A DNA stretch of 64,000 nt from Escherichia coli O127:H6 str. E2348/69 (GTDB lineage Bacteria; Pseudomonadota; Gammaproteobacteria; Enterobacterales; Enterobacteriaceae), in NCBI RefSeq assembly GCF_000026545.1, contig NC_011601.1. One strand, written 5' to 3'. The number at the start of each line of letters is the position of its first letter. Position 1 is the stretch's first letter. The notes under the pieces are model-generated. The model saw only the letters and a list, made by a program, of their open reading frames with translations, was not told where the DNA came from and made no database searches. Below are positions 51,722-62,645 of this stretch, piece after piece. The position numbers and the translations under genes are program-made.

Positions 51722-51804
51722 AGATCACGTCAAAATAAGAAGAGGGAAGACAACATTAGCAAGGTTGTGTACATTTGTACACAATTGCAGAGAGAGGAAA
51801 TGAC

Positions 51805-52341
51805 ATGCGTCGCGCTAACGATCCGCAACGGCGAGAAAAAATTATCCAGGCCACGCTGGAGGCGGTGAAACTTTACGGAATACATGCTGTTACACACCGC
51901 AAAATTGCTACCCTTGCCGGGGTGCCGTTGGGATCGATGACCTACTATTTTTCAGGCATTGATGAGTTGTTGCTGGAGGCGTTCAGCCGTTTTACTGAGA
52001 TCATGTCCCGGCAATATCAGGCATTTTTTAGCGATGTTAGTGATGCTCCAGGCGCATGCCAGGCTATCACCGATATGATCTACAGCTCACAGGTCGCAAC
52101 GCCGGATAATATGGAGCTGATGTACCAGCTCTACGCGCTGGCTAGCCGAAAACCGCTATTAAAAACGGTAATGCAAAACTGGATGCAGCGCAGTCAACAA
52201 ACGCTCGAACAATGGTTTGAACCCGGAACCGCCCGCGCGCTTGATGCGTTTATTGAGGGGATGACGCTGCATTTTGTCACCGACCGTAAGCCGCTATCAC
52301 GCGAGGAGATTTTGAGGATGGTTGAGAGGATTGCTGGGTAG
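51805..52341 (+). CDS. rcdA: TetR-family transcriptional regulator RcdA
   Basis: Start trimmed to [10 protein letters not shown]... (178 aa); N-terminal TetR HTH. Confidence 0.9.
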
Positions 52342-52445
52342 TAGATAAATTTCAGGCAACAAAAAACCCATTTATGTAAACGGGTTAATGAAAACAATAA
52401 CTTAGAGTAAAAACAATAAGTTGGGTTGGTGGTCAGTGGTGGTTA

Positions 52446-53498
52446 TTACGGGGTAATGCCAACCGCTGCCGCCACTTTGTCGCCACTTGGCAGCGTTGCC
52501 AGAGGATTGAAACGGAGCGCCGTTTCCAGATGATCCGGTGCCAGATGTGCGTAACGCATAGTCATTTTTATATCGTGGTGTCCGAGAATTTTTTGTAAAG
52601 CCAGAATGTTTCCACCCGACATCATGAAGTGCGCCGCAAACGTATGGCGCAGAACGTGTGTGGGTTGACCGCGAGGGAGCACGATAGACGTTTTTTCCAT
52701 CACGGATAAAAATTGAAAATAGCAGTCTGTGAAGAAATTGAACCCATCAAGCGCCATGATCTCTTCGTAAAGCTCTTTACTGATAGGGATGCTTCTGTTT
52801 TTCTTCCCCTTCGCTCTTACAAAGGTAATTCGGTATTTGGTCACCTGTGAGCGGGTAAGATTTACGTCTTCTCGCCAGCGTGCGCCTGTGCTTAAGCATA
52901 TCTTAACTACCAGTGCCAGAATTGGGTCCTGACGTTTGCAATCAGCTAGTAATTCAACAATCTGCTCATGGGTAAGCCATGCCATCTCTTTTTCTGCGAT
53001 GGTGAATTTTCGCATGTTCTCCAGTGGGTTCGGATACGACCATTCGCCCAGGCGGGATAGTTCGCTAAAAACACTACTTAGATAGCTTTGCTCCAGGTTA
53101 ATGGTGACCGGGCTTGCTCCTTTCTTCCATTTCTCACTGAAGTAGATCTCACCTGTCAGGCGTTTATCTCGATAGTGGGCAAACATTTTAGAGGTTAGAT
53201 CAGTTGCAAGGGGATTGCCCAGAGCGTCAACCATCAGCAGCAATTTGTCATAGACATGCTGCCCAGCAGTCAGAGATTTACCATGTAGTTTGAACCATAG
53301 CTCAACCACGTCTTTCAGTGTTCGACGATCCACTGATTCACCCAGCCAGGGCTTTGCTTCGGTTTCTTCCATCGTGTGACGCTCAAAAGCCAGTGCTTCG
53401 CCTTTGGTGGCGAATTGTTTACGCACACGACGCCCACTACGTCCGGCGGGGTAACATTCGCAAAGCCATTTTCCTGTGGTGAGTTTTCGTACTGCCAT
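52446..53498 (-). CDS. int: phage integrase (tyrosine recombinase, P2/186 type)
   Basis: 350 aa; N-terminus MAVRKLTTGKWLCECYPAGRSGRRVRKQFATKGEALAFE and catalytic-domain motifs (LSTGARW, LRHTFAAHFMMSGGNILALQKILGH, MRYAHLAP) match recalled 186 Int. Confidence 0.9.
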   Translation of the reverse strand: MAVRKLTTGKWLCECYPAGRSGRRVRKQFATKGEALAFERHTMEETEAKPWLGESVDRRTLKDVVELWFKLHGKSLTAGQHVYDKLLLMVDALGNPLATDLTSKMFAHYRDKRLTGEIYFSEKWKKGASPVTINLEQSYLSSVFSELSRLGEWSYPNPLENMRKFTIAEKEMAWLTHEQIVELLADCKRQDPILALVVKICLSTGARWREDVNLTRSQVTKYRITFVRAKGKKNRSIPISKELYEEIMALDGFNFFTDCYFQFLSVMEKTSIVLPRGQPTHVLRHTFAAHFMMSGGNILALQKILGHHDIKMTMRYAHLAPDHLETALRFNPLATLPSGDKVAAAVGITP

Positions 53499-53584
53499 AA
53501 TAAAGCCCTCATATCAGAGGGCTAAATTTAACTGTATGTTTGACCAGTGGTCAATGTATGGTTTAGTTTATTCAAACAATGCTT

Positions 53585-55102
53585 TTAATCAAATGATGTG
53601 GCCAGTTCAATTAATTCAATGTAATTATGTAAGGCATAAAAAGATGTATTCAGACCATTCTCTATAAGGGCTCCTTGCAAATACTTTATAGCTGTATCAC
53701 CATCAATAGGGCCTTGTTGAGATATAATCATTAGTGAATTTTGCCCATTGTTTTTTATACTTGATTTAAGCATGTTTATATTATTAATAAAATACAATGC
53801 AACATCTAAGTAATTTATTAATGTTAAATTTATTTTGGGCTCAATCTGTGAGATGAATAATCTACTGCTCGCCGTTCTATAGATATAATTGACACCTATT
53901 CTTTGCTGATTTGTATCAAGATTTAATTCAAGGATGGCTTGAGAAACACCTTTTAAATTGGAGCTTTGCTTTATCGAATCAGTGAAACGTTGTGCTGCAT
54001 TTCTTCGACCAATTAGTCCATCTATAATTTGACGTTCCTTATCATATATAATCATTAGCGAAATTATAAAAATATAATCTACTTTCTTTTTGACTAAATC
54101 AGATTTAAGAATGTCTATTAACCTTTCAGTATTTCGGATTGAGTCTCTTAGATTTAACCCAAATGCTTCAAATACGTTGGAAATATTTATTGAAAAGTCT
54201 TCTAATGTTGCTGTTAGTGGGTGTGTTTTTGATGTGATATTTTCAAAATCGGTACCAATATAATCACCAACAACACCATTAATTAAATCTTTAAGCTCAG
54301 GTTGTTTTAAAGTAAATCTTCTATGAAAAAAACGGCCTAAATAGTCATTTGCGGAAAAATCATTACCGTAAACATTCTTGATTGAATGTTGTAATTGATC
54401 TGTGTCAGTAGCAATAATAAAGACAAAATTTTTAATATCGAATATATGTTTAACAATCTCTAAAAGAGAAATTGCATAATCTGGCCTGCATCTGTCTAAT
54501 TCATCTATAAAGATAAATATAGGACATGAAAAACTATTTTCATATGCCAACCTAGACCATAACGTTAGTTCTTTTTTTAATACCTTAATGCTCTTCAGTT
54601 TTTCCTGGTGTTCCTTCAGCATTATTAATGAGGCTTCTTTGGCTATATCACCTACGTTATCTACTCCTGCATAAGTCTTGATTAGGCCAGATATGATTTC
54701 AGGTAGAACACCTTTTGTAAAGCGTCCGATAGCATGGCCGCTTTGTATCAATCGAGCATCAAGTTTTCCTGCATATGTTTGCAATTGTTGTGACAAAGAA
54801 GAAAAAAGGGTTAAAAATGCATCATCAGAAAAGTCTTGCTTCCAGGCATCAATGTAAACGCATGGGTGTGCATCTTTTATTGAGTTATAAAATCTCTTTA
54901 TGAAAAAACTTTTACCAGCTCCCCATTCTGCATTAAGGTTGATTACCGTGTTGTTCTTTTGCCCCTTTTCCTTAAGATAAAAATATAGATATTCTGCATA
55001 GTGTCTCCGATTAAGTTTGTCTTTGGAAAGAATTTCCTCTTCGTCGTCTAATATAAAGGTAGTTTCTTCATCCCAGTTCCAATTACAATCACCACATTTC
55101 AC
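53585..55102 (-). CDS. KAP-family P-loop NTPase (prophage cargo; candidate anti-phage protein)
   Basis: 505 aa; GTG start with GGAGA RBS; Walker A AEWGAGKS (res 58-65) and Walker B IFIFIDELDRC typical of KAP NTPases; long Asn/Ile/Lys-rich C-terminal region; AT-rich. Confidence 0.7.
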   Translation of the reverse strand: MKCGDCNWNWDEETTFILDDEEEILSKDKLNRRHYAEYLYFYLKEKGQKNNTVINLNAEWGAGKSFFIKRFYNSIKDAHPCVYIDAWKQDFSDDAFLTLFSSLSQQLQTYAGKLDARLIQSGHAIGRFTKGVLPEIISGLIKTYAGVDNVGDIAKEASLIMLKEHQEKLKSIKVLKKELTLWSRLAYENSFSCPIFIFIDELDRCRPDYAISLLEIVKHIFDIKNFVFIIATDTDQLQHSIKNVYGNDFSANDYLGRFFHRRFTLKQPELKDLINGVVGDYIGTDFENITSKTHPLTATLEDFSINISNVFEAFGLNLRDSIRNTERLIDILKSDLVKKKVDYIFIISLMIIYDKERQIIDGLIGRRNAAQRFTDSIKQSSNLKGVSQAILELNLDTNQQRIGVNYIYRTASSRLFISQIEPKINLTLINYLDVALYFINNINMLKSSIKNNGQNSLMIISQQGPIDGDTAIKYLQGALIENGLNTSFYALHNYIELIELATSFD

Positions 55103-55127
55103 TATGAAGTCTCCATGAAAAATTTAC

Positions 55128-56051
55128 TTAATGTAAACAACTTATAATAACTTTTGCAATAAACTCAATGTCTGTAAGCGAACATTCAAAAGAGTGATTT
55201 TGGGATGAAATATAAACTCGTCCTTTAGGTAGTCGAGTTATCATTCTAAATGAATTCTCTCCATCAATATTTACTAGCCACTTACCATCATGTACATCTT
55301 TAAAACCCATTTCACATATTAATTCAGAGTCTTCGGTAGATACTACGAATGCATTTTTTAAATTGGAAGGTAGAAAGCATGGGTCAAATAAATATGAGCC
55401 ATCATTTATTAACTTGCCATTGATTAATACTTTTTTCACTAATGTTAAAGTATCTTTATTTTTTGCGTTTTTCATTTCTCCTGTACCAAATGAAATCCAT
55501 TCAATAGAATGGCCCGTTTCTATTGCACACTGCAAAACCCAGTCTGCAGGAAAAATGTCACGCATGTATCGTGTGGCTAATGTGCTTTTTGAAATACCTA
55601 GGTGATCAGCTAATGCTTGGCGCGTTTTGTAACCGTAAGCCTCGACAATTCGTTCTATTGTTGCCTTACCCCCTCGGTTAAAATTCATGAGTTTTTCATT
55701 ATCGAACTTTATAGTGGGAATGTATACTTCATTGCAAAGGCCATTAACGGCATGTTTTTCAGAATATTGCTCTGATGAAGGAGCAGTATCTGAACCAAGA
55801 ACTAACCATTCAATTGATGCTCCTGTTTCTATGGAACATATAACAACCCAATCTGCAGGAAAGGTATTACGTGCATATCTGTTGGCCATAGTACTTTGGG
55901 AAATACCTAGATGATTACATAATGCCTGTCGTGACTTGAAGCCATAGGCTAGGAGTATACGCTCAATAACTTTTTGCCCTCCACGATTCTGCATAACTAT
56001 TGCTTTCAGATCGTTTTTGATATGGCTAAATTTTAATTTTTGAGTTGACAT
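55128..56051 (-). CDS. CI-like repressor paralog with tandemly duplicated N-terminal DNA-binding domain
   Basis: 307 aa; residues ~20-85 and ~120-190 are two copies of the domain (IERxxxAYGxKxRQALxxHLGISxSTxAxRYxRxxFPAxWVxxCxxETGxSxxWL) found once in the adjacent CI; C-terminal domain is paralogous to the CI C-terminus. Start could alternatively be the Met at residue 20. Confidence 0.75.
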   Translation of the reverse strand: MSTQKLKFSHIKNDLKAIVMQNRGGQKVIERILLAYGFKSRQALCNHLGISQSTMANRYARNTFPADWVVICSIETGASIEWLVLGSDTAPSSEQYSEKHAVNGLCNEVYIPTIKFDNEKLMNFNRGGKATIERIVEAYGYKTRQALADHLGISKSTLATRYMRDIFPADWVLQCAIETGHSIEWISFGTGEMKNAKNKDTLTLVKKVLINGKLINDGSYLFDPCFLPSNLKNAFVVSTEDSELICEMGFKDVHDGKWLVNIDGENSFRMITRLPKGRVYISSQNHSFECSLTDIEFIAKVIISCLH

Positions 56052-56101: not shown

Positions 56102-56677
56102 TTACTCAAAGTACTTAACTGTTATGCTTATAATTTTTCCAATAATTTCGATTTCTTCTTTTTTACATTCGAAAGCCCTATTTCCACCTTCAACTAAGAT
56201 TCTTCCACCAGGTAAACGAGTGATATCGCGGATTGTTACTTCGGCATCAATACTTATTACCCATTTGCCGTCACGAATATCGTTAAACTCTTTATCGCAA
56301 ATAAAAACGGAATTGTTATCGGTGATTACAAACGGATTTTTGAGCGTAGATGGTAGAAATTCTTTATCGAAAATATAAAAACCATCTTCCTGCAAGGTTC
56401 CATCAGATAATACATATTTAACGACTTCCATAGTATTTGTATTACCTGAAGTTTGCTTTGAACCATGTCCGGTCGTGAGCCAGTTAAGCGAGGCGCCCGT
56501 TTCAAGTGCGCACTGGATTACCCATTCAGCAGGGAATGAGTCACGCATATAGCGTGTGGCGAGAGTACTTTTAGAGATTCCTAAGTGATCGCACAACGCC
56601 TGTCGAGTCTTGAAGCCATATGCTTCTACCATGCGCTCTATAGCGCCTCGTCCGCCTTTCTCCAAACTCATGGTCAC
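56102..56677 (-). CDS. cI: prophage immunity repressor CI (186 type)
   Basis: 191 aa; divergent from the apl/cII operon; N-terminal domain resembles recalled 186 CI (...AYGF...CALETGA..W..TG); start may be the ATG at 56671 instead. Confidence 0.75.
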   Translation of the reverse strand: MTMSLEKGGRGAIERMVEAYGFKTRQALCDHLGISKSTLATRYMRDSFPAEWVIQCALETGASLNWLTTGHGSKQTSGNTNTMEVVKYVLSDGTLQEDGFYIFDKEFLPSTLKNPFVITDNNSVFICDKEFNDIRDGKWVISIDAEVTIRDITRLPGGRILVEGGNRAFECKKEEIEIIGKIISITVKYFE

Positions 56678-56796: not shown

Positions 56797-57018
56797 ATGA
56801 AACCTAACATTTCAATCACTCTTACCACGCCTCATGTGACTATTGAACGTTATAGCGAGCTGACAGGGCTATCCATCGATACTATCAATGACATGTTGGC
56901 TGATGGACGTCTTATCCGTCACCGTCTGCGGAAAGATAAAAAACGCGAAAAAGTGATGATCAACATAGCAGCCATGACCGTTGATGCGCTTTCAGAATGC
57001 AATCTAAACCTTAATTAG
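56797..57018 (+). CDS. Apl/Cox-like HTH excisionase-regulator
   Basis: 73 aa; first gene of the rightward operon with GAGGAA RBS; position matches 186 apl / P2 cox. Confidence 0.55.
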
Positions 57019-57050: not shown

Positions 57051-57560
57051 ATGTTTGATTACCAAGTTTCCAAACACCCGCATTTTGATGAAGCCTGTAG
57101 AGCTTTTGCACTTCGTCACAATATGGCGAAGCTGGCAGAACGTGCAGGAATGAATGTCCAGACTCTGCGAAACAAACTCAACCCAGATCAACCGCATCAG
57201 CTCAATGCGCCAGAAATCTGGCTGCTTACCGATCTGACTGAAGATTCAACGCTGGTAGATGGCTTTCTGGCACAGATTCACTGCCTGCCATGTGTACCGA
57301 TTAATGAGGTGGCAAAAGAGAAACTGCCGCATTACGTCATGAGTGCAACTGCAGAGATAGGGCGTGTCGCGGCAGGTGCGGTTTCTGGCGATGTAAAAAC
57401 CAGTGCAGGCCGTCGTGATGCGATCAGCAGCATTAACTCTGTTACACGACTGATGGCGCTGGCTGCTGTTTCATTGCAGGCCCGTTTACAGGCTAATCCT
57501 GCGATGGCGAGTGCAGTTGATACCGTGACTGGCCTCGGTGCTTCATTCGGTTTGCTGTGA
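57051..57560 (+). CDS. cII: CII-like lysogeny establishment regulator (186 type)
   Basis: Start trimmed to [45 protein letters not shown]...; closely matches recalled 186 CII over its full length. Confidence 0.85.
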
Positions 57561-57567
57561 GGTGCTT

Positions 57568-57768
57568 ATGCTGACGAAAGAACCATCATTTGCATCGCTG
57601 CTGGTAAAACAAAGTCCGGCAATGCACTACGGTCACGGCTGGATCATGGGTGAGGATGGTAAACGCTGGCATCCGTGCCGTTCACAAGATGAATTGCTGG
57701 CAGAACTATCAACGAAAAAACGGGGGAACCAATGGCTATTGAAGGCGCTGCGGCGACTGTTCCATTAA
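57568..57768 (+). CDS. hypothetical phage early protein
   Basis: 66 aa from MLTKEPSF...; sits where 186 carries fil; no recognisable motif. Confidence 0.4.
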   Translation: MLTKEPSFASLLVKQSPAMHYGHGWIMGEDGKRWHPCRSQDELLAELSTKKRGNQWLLKALRRLFH

Positions 57769-58073
57769 GCCCCGGTGAACGCCTGAATGGACTTAATCAT
57801 ATTGCGGAATTAAGAGCGAAAGTTTTTGGCCTGAATATTGAGTCAGAGCTTGAGCGGTTTATTAAAGATATGCGTGATCCACGGGATATCAATAATGAAC
57901 AAAATAAACGGGCACTGGCTGCCATATTCTTTATGGCAAAAATTCCAGCTGAACGTCATAGCATCAGCATTAATGAGCTGACCACTGACGAAAAGCGGGA
58001 GCTGATTAAAGCAATGAATCATTTTCGTGCAGTGGTGAGCTTATTTCCCAGACGGCTAACCATGCCGAATTAA
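57732..58073 (+). CDS. hypothetical phage early protein
   Basis: 113 aa ORF in the early operon; start uncertain (overlaps previous gene by 37 nt). Confidence 0.4.
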   Translation: MAIEGAAATVPLSPGERLNGLNHIAELRAKVFGLNIESELERFIKDMRDPRDINNEQNKRALAAIFFMAKIPAERHSISINELTTDEKRELIKAMNHFRAVVSLFPRRLTMPN

Positions 58074-58140
58074 CCAACTAATGAAATTCATGGCGTAAAC
58101 CCGCCAGGCATCCCTTTATCTAAATTCAGGAGAATTGATT

Positions 58141-58374
58141 ATGCGTAATATTGAAACCCTCACGACTAAAACCGGACCGGATGATGCAGGGCTTAATATT
58201 TTACTGACAGAGGCTCGTCTGGAAGAACGCCGGGCAAGGGCTGAAGCAATGGCAGCTCGCCTTGATAGCCTGGCGTGTCATATCACATCCCGCCAGCTAA
58301 ACCACGTCGAAGCGGCAGAACTGCTGCGTGTGACTGCTGAAGCAATCCAGAACGAAGCGCAGGAGATCCACTGA
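58141..58374 (+). CDS. hypothetical phage early protein
   Basis: 77 aa from MRNIETLTTK...; CAGGAGAA RBS 6 nt upstream; stop overlaps next start (TGATG). Confidence 0.5.
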   Translation: MRNIETLTTKTGPDDAGLNILLTEARLEERRARAEAMAARLDSLACHITSRQLNHVEAAELLRVTAEAIQNEAQEIH

Positions 58375-58601
58375 TGGCTGATGCAATGGATCTCGTACAG
58401 CAGCGCGTTGAAGAAGAACGCCAGCGTCATATCCGTGCTGCCCGCGCCAAAACGCCGGGCGTATCCCGCGTGCTTTGCATTGAGTGTGAAGCACCAATTC
58501 CGCCAGCACGACGTCGCGCCATTCCGGGTGTGCAGCTTTGCATTACCTGTCAGGAAATCGCAGAGCTGAAAGGCAAACATTACAACGGAGGTGCTGTATG
58601 A
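58374..58601 (+). CDS. phage TraR/DksA-family C4 zinc-finger protein
   Basis: 75 aa; CIECEAPIPPARRRAIPGVQLCITCQ is paralogous to chromosomal YbiI (CEECGAPIPQARREAIPGVRLCIHCQ). Confidence 0.75.
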   Translation: MADAMDLVQQRVEEERQRHIRAARAKTPGVSRVLCIECEAPIPPARRRAIPGVQLCITCQEIAELKGKHYNGGAV

Positions 58602-59455
58602 GCACCATCCTGAAATGGGCGGGTAATAAAACCGCCATTATGCCAGAACTGAAAAAATACCTTCCTGCTGGCCCGCGACTGGTTGAACCTTTCGCGGGTT
58701 CTTGTGCTGTGATGATAGAGACGGATTACCCCAGCTATCTTGTTGCGGATATTAATCCTGATTTAATCAACCTCTATAAAAAGGTTGCTGCTGATTGCGA
58801 GGCGTTTATATCTCGTGCCAGAGCTTTATTTGAGGAAGCAAACAGGGAGGTGGCTTATTACAACATAAGGCAGGAGTTTAATTACTCCACTGAAATTACT
58901 GATTTCATGAAAGCGGTATATTTCCTGTATCTCAATCGTCATGGTTACCGTGGGTTATGTCGCTATAACAAGAGCGGGCATTTCAACATTCCCTACGGGA
59001 ATTATAAAAATCCGTATTTCCCTGAAAAAGAAATTCGCAAATTTGCAGAAAAAGCCCAGCGAGCAACGTTTATCTGCGCCAGCTTTGATGAAACGCTGGC
59101 GATGTTGAAGGCGGGGGATGTGGTGTATTGCGATCCGCCTTATGACGGTACGTTTTCCGGCTATCACACTGATGGCTTCACTGAGGATGACCAGTATCAC
59201 CTGGCATCCGTTCTTGAACATCGATCATCTGAAGGTCATCCGGTCATTGTTTCTAACAGTGACACATCCCTGATTCGTTCGCTGTATCGCAATTTCACTC
59301 ACCACTACATCAAGGCAAAACGCAGCATCGGCGTGTCGGCTGGCGAGAGTAAATCTGCAACAGAAATCATTGCTGTTTCCGGGGCGCGCTGCTGGGTGGG
59401 ATTTGATCCTTCGCGTGGCGTGGATAGTTCTGCTGTGTACGAGGTGCGTGTATGA
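58598..59455 (+). CDS. dam: phage DNA adenine methyltransferase (Dam-like)
   Basis: 285 aa from [12 protein letters not shown]... with GGAGG RBS; FAGSCAV SAM-binding motif and DPPY catalytic motif. Confidence 0.85.
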
Positions 59456-61866
59456 GTCATGATGATATGAGCAACTCTAGCGGCTTTAACGAGGCCGCTG
59501 CAGCATTTTCATGGAACGGCCCGAAAAAGGCCATTAACCCTTATCTGGATCCGGCGGAAGTTGCGCCGGAGTCTGCACTTTCAAACATGATCACTCTGTA
59601 CGCTGCCGATAACGAGCAGGAACAGCTGCGCCGCGATGCACTGAGTGAGCAGGTCTGGGAGCGTTATTTCTTTAATGAATCCCGTGATCCTGTCCAGCGC
59701 GAAATGGAGCAGGATAATCTCATTAGTCGGGCAAAGCTGGCGCATGATCAGCAGCGTTTTAACCCGGACATGGTCATTCTGGCGGACGTCAGCGCCCAGC
59801 CCACCCACATCAGCAAGCCGCTGATGCAACGTATCGAATACTTCAGCAGCCTGGGCAGGCCAAAGGCTTATTCCCGCTATTTGCGTGAGACGATTAAGTC
59901 ATGTCTGGAGCGACTGGAGTATGTACGCGACAGTCAGCTATCCGCTTCTTTCCGTTTTATGGCAAGCCATCAAGGGCTTGAGGGCCTGCTGATCCTGCCT
60001 GAAATGAGTCAGGATCAGGTAAAACGCCTGTCCACCTTGGTAGCAGCGCATATGAGCATGTGTCTTGAGGCCGCTTGTGGTGATTTGTATGCCTCCGATG
60101 ACGTTAAGCCAGAAGAAATCCGCAAGACATGGGAAAAGGTGGCAGCGGAAACCCTGCGTCTGGATGTTATCCCGCCTGCGTTTGAGAAACTCCGTCGGAA
60201 AAGAAACCGCCGCAAACCCGTGCCCTATGAACTCATACCGGGTTCGCTGGCACGTATGCTTTGCGCCGACTGGTGGTATCGAAAATTGTGGAAGATACGT
60301 TGCGAATGGCGGGAAGAGCAGTTGCGTGCTGTCTGCCTGGTCAGCAAAAAAGCATCTCCCTATGTCAGCTATGAAGCAGTGACGCATAAACGTGAGCAGC
60401 GCCGCAAGTCGCTGGAGTTTTTCCGTTCTCATGAACTGGTGAACGAAGACGGCGACACGCTGGATATGGAAGACGTGGTAAACGCCAGCAGCAGCAACCC
60501 GGCGCACCGCCGCAATGAGATGATGGCCTGTGTTAAAGGTCTGGAGCTTATCGCGGAAATGCGTGGTGACTGCGCCGTTTTCTACACCATTACCTGTCCG
60601 TCACGTTTCCATTCTACGCTCAATAACGGCAGACCAAACCCAACCTGGACAAATGCGACGGTAAGACAAAGCAGCGATTATCTGGTCGGCATGTTTGCTG
60701 CATTTCGTAAGGCTATGCACAAAGCCGGGTTGCGCTGGTATGGCGTGCGGGTGGCTGAGCCGCACCATGACGGTACTGTGCACTGGCATCTCATGTGTTT
60801 CATGCGCAAAAAAGACCGCCGCGCCATTACTGCATTGTTGCGTAAGTTTGCCATCCGTGAAGACCGCGAGGAACTGGGCAATAACACGGGTCCACGCTTT
60901 AAGTCTGAGCTGATAAACCCGCGCAAAGGAACGCCGACAAGCTACATCGCGAAATACATCAGTAAGAACATTGACGGACGTGGTCTGGCTGGCGAGATCA
61001 GCAAGGAAACGGGTAAATCCCTGCGTGATAACGCCGAATACGTTAATGCCTGGGCGTCTCTGCATCGTGTTCAGCAGTTCCGCTTCTTTGGTATTCCGGG
61101 GCGTCAGGCGTACCGTGAACTTCGCTTGCTGGCTGGTCAGGCGGCAAGGCAACAGGGTGACAAAAAAGCAGGTGCGCCGGTACTGGATGACCCGCGCCTT
61201 GATGCCATCCTGGCTGCCGCTGATGCTGGCTGTTTTGCCACCTACATCATGAAGCAGGGCGGCGTACTGGTTCCCCGCAAATATCACCTTATCAGAACAG
61301 CTTATGAAATTAACGAAGAGCCGACCGCTTATGGCGATCACGGTATTCGTATTTATGGCATCTGGTCACCCATTGTACAGGGCAAGATCTGCACTCATGC
61401 AATGAAATGGAAAATGGTTCGTAAGGTCGTTGACGTTCAGGAGGCGGCAGCCGACCAGGGCGCTTGCGCCCCTTGGACTCGTGGCAATAACTGTCCCCTT
61501 GCTGAAAATTTGAACCGACAGGAGAAAGATAAATCAGCTGATGGGGACCCCAGAACGGACATTACCCGCATGGATGACAAGGAGTTACACGATTACCTGC
61601 ACAGTATGAACAAAAAGGAGCGCCGGGAACTGGCTGCAAGGTTACGTCTGGTGAAACCGAAACGGCGTAGAGACTACAAACAGCGAATTACAGACCATCA
61701 ACGACAGCAGCTCGTCTATGAACTGAAATCCAGAGGATTTGATGGCAGCGAGAAAGAGGTCGATTTACTCCTTCGCGGCGGCAGTATTCCGTCAGGAGCT
61801 GGCCTGCGTATCTTCTATCGGAACCAGCGTTTGCAGGAAGATGATAAGTGGCGGAACCTGTATTAA
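59452..61866 (+). CDS. A: phage replication initiation protein A (HuH rolling-circle endonuclease)
   Basis: 804 aa; HuH motif (VHWHLMCF) followed later by tyrosine-containing region ([10 protein letters not shown]); positional equivalent of P2/186 gene A. Confidence 0.8.
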
Positions 61867-61959
61867 TTACGCTGGTTAACAATTCGTGCTCTTAATAATA
61901 CCAGGCATATCAGGCTGATAAGCGTAAAAAAAACGTTTTACATCAGTAAGATTATTATA

Positions 61960-61979
61960 TACTGTAAATATAAACAGTG
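61960..61979 (+). promoter_or_regulatory. LexA (SOS) box
   Basis: TACTGTAAATATAAACAGTG fits CTGT-N8-ACAG, 40 bp upstream of the 62021 ORF. Confidence 0.75.
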
Positions 61980-62020
61980 GTTATACATACAGCATTGTGT
62001 GTGGTGTCATAGGAGGAAAG

Positions 62021-62209
62021 ATGCAGGACTATTTTTTGGAGTCTTTGAAGCTCCAGCGCATTGATTTTTTTCTTAAGCTTGTAGCGGCTAGTGAGTGTAG
62101 TGATGAAGAGAAGGGGCTGGCTCTGCAGTGGGTTTCTGAATTGACTGATGAACTTATGGCAAAAATCAGAAGCCACGAATACAACCGCTCAATGGATGTC
62201 ATCAGCTGA
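62021..62209 (+). CDS. SOS-controlled small protein (positional equivalent of the 186 Tum antirepressor; function unverified)
   Basis: 62 aa from MQDYFLESLK... with AGGAGG RBS; directly downstream of the LexA box. Confidence 0.5.
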   Translation: MQDYFLESLKLQRIDFFLKLVAASECSDEEKGLALQWVSELTDELMAKIRSHEYNRSMDVIS

Positions 62210-62219
62210 GGTGACTTTT

Positions 62220-62453
62220 ATGCGCATTGAAATAATGATCGATAAAGAGCAGAAGATTAGCCAGTCTACCCTGGACGCCCTTGAATCCGAGCTTTACCGC
62301 AATCTGCGCCCCCTGTATCCCAAAACGGTAATTCGCATTCGCAAAGGTAGCTCTAACGGTGTGGAACTAACCGGACTGCAACTGGATGAAGAAAGAAAAC
62401 AAGTGATGAAAATTATGCAGAAGGTGTGGGAGGACGACAGCTGGCTGCATTAA
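62220..62453 (+). CDS. DinI-family protein
   Basis: 77 aa MRIEIMIDKEQ...IMQKVWEDDSWLH resembles DinI; GAGGTG RBS. Confidence 0.75.
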   Translation: MRIEIMIDKEQKISQSTLDALESELYRNLRPLYPKTVIRIRKGSSNGVELTGLQLDEERKQVMKIMQKVWEDDSWLH

Positions 62454-62645
62454 GAAACGTTGCCCCCAGGAGGATTCATTCTGATGGGGGCTAGTTTGGG
62501 CAATGAGTGAAATAAGGCGTAAGGTGGGCGGTTATTTTGATAAGTGATCGTCCGCTTTGTGTCAGAAGCAGAAGTGGGAGTGTCTGAGACTCTCTAAAAG
62601 TTGATGATTCACTTACAAAACCATTTTCCTGATGAATGCTTACAC

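Follow-up and report, generated by a model that had tools for sequence, protein, structure and literature searches.

A P2/186-family prophage beside rcdA in Escherichia coli E2348/69 very probably has its attachment site at the 3′ end of the small RNA gene rybB

Positions 52346–53498 of the 64-kb stretch of E. coli DNA analysed here (the window) very probably comprise the left junction (attL) and the integrase gene of a ~34.1-kb prophage of the P2/186 family, whose bacterial attachment site (attB) overlaps the 3′ end of the small RNA (sRNA) gene rybB. The prophage applies to an sRNA gene the tRNA-type strategy of using the 3′ end of an RNA gene, and the absence of a tRNA at the junction is no anomaly because the target is the rybB 3′ end. 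An earlier note on this DNA had described a prophage directly 3′ of rcdA with no tRNA at the junction; the features that it listed (rcdA, int, a hairpin and the tRNA-free junction) are all present, and the observation is confirmed. Its interpretation stands as to the prophage junction, the interval given for attL, the lack of a tRNA and the 186-like integrase, but it missed the rybB 3′ end as the target, and the site is not plain intergenic DNA. The breakpoints, the repeat that marks them, an intact RybB at attR, a matching attP and the location of exchange to one side of the core were all read directly from the occupied, empty and phage sites compared below.

The overall layout of the junction is as follows. 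The interval 51775–53600 is 100% identical to the chromosome record NZ_CP059840.2 (enteropathogenic E. coli E2348/69), with the window plus strand corresponding to the minus strand of the record, and the full element was read from 44 kb of that record (L001), which overlaps the window by 12,226 bases with 0 mismatches. The host gene flanking attL, rcdA (ybjK), occupies 51805–52341 on the plus strand according to the RefSeq annotation and the sequence, with its TAG stop at 52339–52341, and int lies at 52446–53498 on the minus strand. The last base of the int stop codon falls 105 bp past the rcdA stop, leaving a spacer of 104 bp; the distance of 105 bp and the placement of a prophage junction 3′ of rcdA are thus borne out by the sequence and by the comparison of occupied and empty sites. 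By the annotation of L001, a complete P2-type gene set runs from int, adjoining rcdA, through ogr, adjoining ybjL. The prophage extends past position 64000, and attR lies ~34.1 kb away, outside the window and beside ybjL.

Strain SF-166 (L002) served as the empty-site reference, in which rcdA is followed by 174 bp and then by the convergent ybjL. Extending identity inward from both sides between the occupied and the empty site defines a 26-bp direct repeat, TAAATTTCAGGCAACAAAAAACCCAT, which is single-copy in the SF-166 empty site and present at both attL and attR in E2348/69. Breakpoint mapping against SF-166 and a four-way alignment of attP, attL, attR and attB place the attL core at 52346–52371, within the interval of about 52342–52460 to which attL had been assigned. 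The cognate attR repeat, which the earlier note proposed to seek at the far end of the prophage, was found by breakpoint mapping at L001 8204–8229, equivalent to window positions 86488–86513 and outside the window. The joined form of the phage is represented by a contig of Klebsiella phage KP12, in which int directly adjoins ogr and the intervening DNA consists of the phage side of attR, the core and the phage side of attL. The KP12 attP core is 25/26 identical to the repeat, and its junction matches the attP reconstructed on the Campbell model, KP12 being a 'partial sequence' contig from a phage preparation and not a proven packaged genome. A second candidate, vB_EcoM-813R9, was rejected as an independent attP, as its record is a prophage extraction that still holds rcdA, ybjJ and other host genes. 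Across species-representative genomes of Escherichia, Citrobacter and Enterobacter, the 26-mer and its known variants occur in 16 stretches, which sit in attB, attL, attR and attP-like contexts.

The site is occupied in ~1,100 of 5,420 complete E. coli genomes, or about one in five: 1090 of 5422 genomes have rcdA next to int, and 1104 of 5418 have the attR junction. Taken alone, this high frequency (~20%) might suggest that the genes are native to the position and that the empty sites are deletions. Such an origin is exceedingly improbable. In ~80% of the complete genomes, K-12 included, there is a precise empty site with a single copy of the core, rcdA being followed at once by rybB and then ybjL; at the occupied sites, direct repeats enclose a full set of P2-type genes; and phages of Citrobacter and Enterobacter with diverged arms use the identical att core. 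The comparison with the rcdA–ybjL junction of K-12 that had been proposed for this purpose finds the genes to be non-native and rybB to lie in between, with the exact breakpoint taken from SF-166.

In K-12 MG1655, rybB (b4417) is annotated between rcdA and ybjL on the minus strand (887979–888057). With the Rfam model of RybB (RF00110; gathering score 40), the empty sites of both K-12 and SF-166 score 105.3 bits, and an intact RybB with the same score of 105.3 bits is found at attR in E2348/69 (L001 8139–8217), in BL21(DE3) and in the Ec67 lysogen. In every site with a match, the 3′ end of the RybB model falls on the final 14 nt of the core, which read AACAAAAAACCCAT on the plus strand and AUGGGUUUUUUGUU in the RNA and consist of 5 nt (AUGGG) from the 3′ side of the terminator stem together with the U-tract. 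The overlap between core and gene is therefore 14 nt by the Rfam model, and 11 nt by the K-12 annotation. At attB, the loop of the rybB terminator exceeds the limit of the terminator scan, which therefore missed it, and the RybB covariance model and the fold were used there. At attL, Rfam gave no RybB match in 52000–54000 at E ≤ 10, and all that is left of rybB is a 14-nt stub of its 3′ end (52358–52371, minus strand), as delimited by the end of the Rfam model and by the distribution of variants in lysogens. The gene is invisible in the window because its intact copy sits at attR, ~34 kb away and past position 64000, and the site looks anonymous in most genomes probably because RefSeq/PGAP records leave rybB unannotated, as do those of E2348/69, SF-166, BL21 and FHI_NMBU_11.

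No tRNA or tmRNA gene was detected by ARAGORN across the whole 64-kb window (0 genes), no tRNA-like match was returned by the Rfam scan of 52000–54000 at E ≤ 10, and Rfam found no tRNA at attR or attB, where RybB alone was matched. The earlier note had likewise seen no tRNA at the junction. The weak Rfam matches near the junction (two CRISPR-DR families, a Trp leader and anti-hemB) were ascribed to chance or generic terminator similarity, and a RyhB match on the int-leader hairpin, at 26 bits against a gathering score of 55, was dismissed on the same grounds. It could be argued from coliphage 186, the closest classical relative, that a tRNA or tmRNA fragment degraded beyond detection lies at the junction, for 186 is annotated as integrating into the 3′ end of a tRNA-Ile gene, ileY, in line with the tRNA-gene target given in the earlier note. 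The scans of the window, the empty site and attR, in which RybB is the only match at the latter two, leave this idea with a probability close to nil. The preferred target remains the 3′ end of rybB.

Natural variation in the core bounds the position of strand exchange. The attB variant of K-12 and B, TAAGTTTTAGATAACAAAAAACCCAT, differs from the phage core at 4 of the first 12 positions and has the 14-mer in common with it. In BL21, the host variants are found at attL and the phage variants at attR; the Ec67 lysogen FHI_NMBU_11 likewise carries a host-type core at attL and a phage-type core at attR, and attL of the vB_EcoM-813R9 host also retains the host variants. Host-type cores at attL combined with phage-type cores at attR place strand exchange beyond position 12 on the right, within the 14 rybB nucleotides, with this bound set by natural variants from three lysogens. 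The exact overlap within the 14-mer would be 6–8 bp. Consistent with two types of attB, the survey of genomes shows empty sites whose breaks fall at either of two positions separated by 12 bp. Integration tolerates differences between phage and host in the upstream 12 nt. Placing the crossover within the rybB 14-mer adds a minor refinement that was not seen in PMC3032704, PMC7826664, PMC6868368 or PMC12803456. These results also bear on whether the target might include no RNA gene and be ordinary intergenic DNA or the rcdA terminator, as the earlier note implies and the window itself would suggest, since it displays just rcdA and a short spacer beside int, with no RNA gene detected there. That reading is very unlikely, given that the empty site holds rybB, that the repeat overlaps the gene by either measure, and that the crossover maps inside this overlap, the adjoining 12 nt being the part that tolerates differences.

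The 12 nt beyond the rybB transcript (TAAATTTCAGGC, plus strand) are identical in attP and in empty sites of Escherichia, Citrobacter and Enterobacter. The flanks on the other side of the 12 nt are unrelated among these genera, and K-12 and B differ at 4/12. One could imagine that the phage lineage has repeatedly imprinted or homogenised the host DNA beside rybB, or else that a shared terminator module (the int-operon hairpin with the RybB 3′ arm and U-tract, an Hfq-binding-type 3′ end) links the prophage transcript to Hfq/RybB regulation at the RNA level; we regard this as an improbable proposal.

Entry at the rybB 3′ end was very probably a site-specific event of the Campbell type, in which attP recombined with a chromosomal attB overlapping the end of the gene. 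In this scheme, attP holds a copy of the last 14 nt of rybB plus, in E2348/69, 12 further downstream nt, and integration rebuilds a complete, unchanged rybB at attR beside ybjL. What is left at attL, beside rcdA, is the 14-nt stub alone, joined to a phage hairpin that is the probable terminator of the int transcript or operon. This terminator-like hairpin, AACCCGUUUA-CA-UAAAUGGGUU followed by UUUUUUGUU, lies downstream of int at 52357–52386 on the minus strand (terminator scan; fold of −9 kcal/mol). Its 3′ arm and U-tract derive from the core and its 5′ arm from phage DNA, and it is only modestly stable (z = −1.7).

The flanking phage arms contain further repeats that a recombination complex may use. 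In the P′ arm, between the core and int, a repeat search found two direct repeats of AAAACAATAA(C/G)TT placed 19 bp apart (52391–52422), which are kept in the KP12 attP and in other lysogens and are candidate sites for an accessory protein (IHF or Apl/Cox). The search also found a tandem pair in the P′ arm, TGCCGCCACTT and TGTCGCCACTT, inside the 3′ end of int (52467–52488) and 96 bp from the core. A second tandem pair, TGCCGCCAYTT/TGTCGCCAY, is located in the P arm at L001 8272–8291, 43 bp from the core, a distance kept in Enterobacter phages though the intervening sequence has diverged. The motif resembles the annotated 186 consensus, YAYCGCCAYTY, and both pairs are candidate arm-type binding sites for Int. 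The intasome may accordingly be pictured as one of the 186 type, in which tandem CGCCAY arm-type sites on both arms would act together with an IHF-like site and an Apl/Cox-like excisionase.

The integrase is a tyrosine recombinase of 350 aa that matches phrog_1 over its full length (1e-71). Its identity is 55% with 186 Int, ~48% with HP2 Int and ~38% with P2 Int, so that the description of it as 186-like holds, 186 being the closest among the classical phages. As to the catalytic residues of tyrosine recombinases (R, K, H-x-x-R, H/W, Y), the comparison with 186 Int was made at the level of motifs, of which TGARWRE, HVLRHTFA and GHHDIKMTMRYAH align between the two proteins. Identity rises to ~99% with the integrases of the retron-bearing relatives, at 331/336 residues for BL21 (Ec86 prophage) and 346/350 for an Ec67 carrier. 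The 90%-identity cluster of the protein counts 4,523 members, which come from E. coli, Klebsiella, Salmonella and Citrobacter, and the UniProt names of the form 'retron EC67 ORF' are absent from its member names.

The hairpin reported just upstream of the int start, GCCCTC-TGATAT-GAGGGC, is present on the minus strand at 53505–53522. It extends to a 7-bp stem at 53504–53523, 5 nt upstream of the int ATG, and in the RNA reads AGCCCUC-UGAUAU-GAGGGCU, followed by UUUAUU and the int AUG (fold, terminator scan). The 76-nt int leader folds at −23.8 kcal/mol, with z = −5.4 relative to shuffles. The 3′ arm of the hairpin holds GAGG, a likely Shine–Dalgarno sequence 8 nt before the AUG, and a U-rich run follows the stem. 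About 65 nt upstream of int are common to E2348/69, KP12 and 813R9, though the next gene upstream differs, and the BL21 variant (stem GCUCUC/GAGGGC, with a different loop) retains the pairing. The leader hairpin may thus serve as a terminator insulating int from the cI/cargo transcript, may sequester the Shine–Dalgarno sequence, or may do both. A palindrome upstream of this hairpin, TTGACCAGTGGTCAA (53540–53554), was considered as an operator and set aside, as it is not kept as a palindrome in KP12, 813R9 or BL21.

Beyond the leader, the interval between int and cI (53585–56051) varies between sibling prophages. In E2348/69 this cargo consists of two minus-strand genes, for a KAP P-loop NTPase (53585–55102; PADLOC PDC-S20, 5e-78) and for a 307-aa CI-like protein with duplicated HTH regions (55128–56051; phrog_4 in three matched stretches). 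Next to it lie the cI repressor gene of the lysogeny switch (56102–56671, minus strand; phrog_4) and, on the plus strand, a gene for an Apl/Cox-like excisionase-repressor (56797–57018; phrog_575, 'Cox-like excisionase and repressor', 1.4e-30). The early region occupies 57051–64000 on the plus strand and, according to the L001 annotation and the translations, comprises cII, fil, DUF5347, DUF2732, traR-like, dam, replication gene A, dinI/tum-like and DUF8087 genes. A 186-type switch is therefore present, with CI and the Cox-like excisionase recognised by PHROG and CII, Fil and the DinI-like protein by annotation. The annotated P2-type virion genes are those for portal Q, terminase P/M, scaffold O, capsid N, sheath FI, tube FII, tape measure T, D and ogr, and a megablast search against Peduoviridae phages gave 92–95% identity. 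The hotspot between gpA and the portal gene carries a ShosA-like gene and a ShosT-like ORF in this copy.

By annotation, the element has a frameshift in the tape-measure gene, a truncated S gene and, beside an invertase, an inverted V–H block. This damage makes virion production unlikely, and the element may be a fixed, defective resident. Its att sites could then be fossils of an immobilised remnant kept for its cargo, which is of defence type (the PDC-S20 KAP NTPase and the ShosTA-like pair). We give this possibility a little less than an even chance, since no damage is seen in int, cI or the cox/apl-like gene, nor in the two 26-bp cores or any of the four arm-type sites, and excision may still take place even without virions. 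The distinction concerns the present activity of the element and not its arrival, for which recombination at the rybB 3′ end remains our account.

The phenomenon is already known and common, and rybB is a documented site for P2-like prophages. In Table 2 of Archer et al. 2011 (PMC3032704), the P2-like prophages Rybb*W, Rybb*B and Rybb*Cr of E. coli W, B and Crooks, respectively, are assigned to the site 'rybB ncRNA', with Rybb*B said to carry Ec86; the same table gives 'cyaR RNA' as the site for P2/Wphi-type prophages. The published Ec67 element, as Hsu et al. 1990 is cited in PMC7826664, measures 34 kb and is flanked by 26-bp direct repeats, to which the ~34-kb E2348/69 element with its 26-bp repeats is alike on the terms of that citation. 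PMC7826664 also reports a similar prophage in K. pneumoniae. Dodd and Egan 1996, as cited in PMC6868368, have Ec67 and Ec86 sharing their position in a 186-related prophage, and a myovirus prophage, NC-MV, has been placed between ybjL and rcdA in strain NC101 (PMC12803456).

A query of ~400 nt of Retron-Eco2/Ec67, taken from the supplement of PMC12956279 (eLife), gave 100% matches in 14 genomes. E2348/69 is absent among the 12 listed of these 14, and no RT gene is annotated anywhere in its element (L001 annotation). In the one Ec67 genome inspected, FHI_NMBU_11, the retron lies in a prophage between ybjL and rcdA that has the 14-mer at both ends. The earlier note had placed a retron-Ec67 phage, phiR67, in the 19-minute region of K-12, and rightly so: the Ec67 prophage lies between the same two genes, and rybB, at 887,979 of 4,641,652 bp, maps to 19.1 min. 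The comparison with phiR67/retron-Ec67 that it suggested accordingly returns the same site and the nearly identical integrase described above. BL21(DE3) has a degraded prophage at the rybB site, with a retron between the DUF8087 gene and the portal gene that is annotated as a St85-family RT plus effector and corresponds to Ec86.

The E2348/69 element is a retron-less sibling of these prophages. Like Ec67/phiR67 and Ec86 (Rybb*B), it has the rcdA/rybB–ybjL site, the att core and Int in common with them, as well as identical accessions for many proteins (ogr and the DinI-like, DUF8087 and TraR-like proteins). The differences lie at two positions: the gpA–portal hotspot holds Ec67 or Ec86 in the siblings and the ShosA-like and ShosT-like ORFs in E2348/69, and the cI–int interval holds a 63-aa ORF in the siblings in place of the PDC-S20 NTPase and the 307-aa CI-like protein.

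Coliphage 186 (Eganvirus) resembles the E2348/69 prophage in its lysogeny and early layout (int, cI, apl/cox, cII, fil, dinI/tum-like and replication gene A), in its P2-type structural genes, in its integrase and in the CGCCAY arm motif. A lysogenic-operon terminator is predicted beside its attP, comparable to the hairpin at attL of E2348/69, and its annotation has three arm-type sites left of attP and two on the other side. The two differ in attB, which for 186 is the ileY 3′ end with 36 bp of identity and for the E2348/69 prophage the rybB 3′ end, and also in that cI and int overlap in 186, whereas extra cargo separates them here.

The P2/Wphi-type prophages belong to the P2 family as well and insert at the locus of another Hfq-dependent sRNA gene, cyaR (PMC3032704), and this use of cyaR makes sRNA genes an established target class for the family. 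They differ from the E2348/69 prophage in integrase lineage (~38% to P2 Int), in target gene and in immunity, which is of the C/Cox type in contrast to the 186-type CI/Apl/CII. Among integrases that act at the 3′ ends of tRNA and tmRNA genes, that of P4 uses leuX, that of phiR73 selC and that of Fels-2 ssrA. In these systems, as at rybB, attP carries a second copy of the 3′ end of the RNA gene, which is small, conserved and structured and is regenerated on one side of the prophage; at rybB, however, what is duplicated is just 5 stem nt and the U-tract, which make up the distal half of an intrinsic terminator, and not part of the body of a tRNA.

The E2348/69 prophage belongs to a published genome, and the Ec67 and Ec86 retron prophages have been known at the 19-minute locus since the 1990s. 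What the present analysis clarifies is the annotation: a P2/186-type integrase beside rcdA without a tRNA is explained by an sRNA-gene target whose intact copy stands at the far junction. For the delimitation of such prophages and for integrase engineering, it is useful that the crossover falls within the last 14 nt of rybB and that the candidate arm-type sites are conserved across genera.

The attB site exists in two forms. One, as at the empty site of strain SF-166 (L002 3572–3597), matches the phage core over all 26 bp, and the other, found in K-12 (L006 3965–3990) and in B, carries four changes within the 12 nt that lie beyond rybB. The comparison, which also took in loci L009, L011, L013, L017 and L024, further revealed the phage-identical 12 nt at apparently empty sites in Enterobacter, Citrobacter and Escherichia whittamii, where the other flank is unrelated. 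The presence of these nucleotides at empty sites may reflect either a host constraint or homogenisation driven by the phages.

The same core is found in Citrobacter. In the complete chromosome of Citrobacter sp. R56 (L010 12196–12221), it is flanked on one side by sequence resembling the P arm (…CACCATTTTGTCGCCAGG…) and on the other by sequence resembling the P' arm (TTATGTCAATGGGTT…), forming an attP-type junction, which may be the joint of two tandem prophages. Another phage lineage in Citrobacter also uses the core (L016 1982–2007 and L021 8558–8583), with long runs of the hexamer GTTGGT adjoining it at the position taken in the E. coli phages by the CGCCAY pair of candidate Int arm-type sites. 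These runs may be an arm or accessory site of another type. The P' arm of the E2348/69 element contains a related GTTGGTGG motif, at about 52421–52445 of the window.

The int leader of about 65 nt (window 53499–53565, minus strand) is kept across relatives whose upstream cargo differs. It contains a promoter-like match, TTGACC-18-TAAATT, and a hairpin whose 3' arm includes the likely Shine-Dalgarno sequence. Int expression may therefore be regulated on its own, apart from the cI transcript. The interval between cI and int holds a two-gene cargo in E2348/69 (window 53585–56051, minus strand), namely a 505-aa KAP P-loop NTPase that matches PDC-S20, a candidate defence family of PADLOC, at 5e-78 and, less strongly, PifA and QatA, and a 307-aa protein that has the architecture of a CI repressor and a duplicated N-terminal HTH region. 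The content of this interval differs strongly among sibling prophages: the Klebsiella phage contig KP12 and Escherichia phage vB_EcoM-813R9 encode an SMC-like ATPase here, and BL21 and the Ec67 lysogen have a 63-aa ORF. In P2-like phages, the equivalent position is published as the minor 'integrase-primase' defence hotspot.

A second variable position, the gpA-portal hotspot (window 63510–64000 and onward; L001 29668–31207 in the longer E2348/69 record), is occupied by retron Ec86 or Ec67 in sibling prophages. In E2348/69, the gene annotated there as 'DprA' matches ShosA (2.8e-70), and its start is overlapped by a 191-aa ORF that has no RefSeq annotation and matches ShosT (3.7e-14). The two probably constitute a Shosta-type defence pair. 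Just upstream of them, at window 63253–63525, is a phage ORF of 90 aa that is conserved.

Beyond the window, the E2348/69 prophage appears damaged (L001 10180–21348): its tape-measure gene is frameshifted, its S (virion morphogenesis) gene is truncated, and its V-W-J-I-H block of baseplate and tail-fibre genes is inverted relative to its neighbours, with a DNA invertase gene adjoining. A far bigger inversion, of about 21 kb from cII to H, is present in the Ec67 lysogen FHI_NMBU_11 (L008).

The sRNA gene at the insertion site is annotated in the curated K-12 record, whereas the PGAP-annotated RefSeq records of E2348/69, SF-166, BL21 and FHI_NMBU_11 (L001, L002, L007 and L008) lack a rybB annotation, although all four genomes contain a RybB with the full score. 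Automated descriptions of prophage sites will therefore tend to name the rybB site 'between rcdA and ybjL'.
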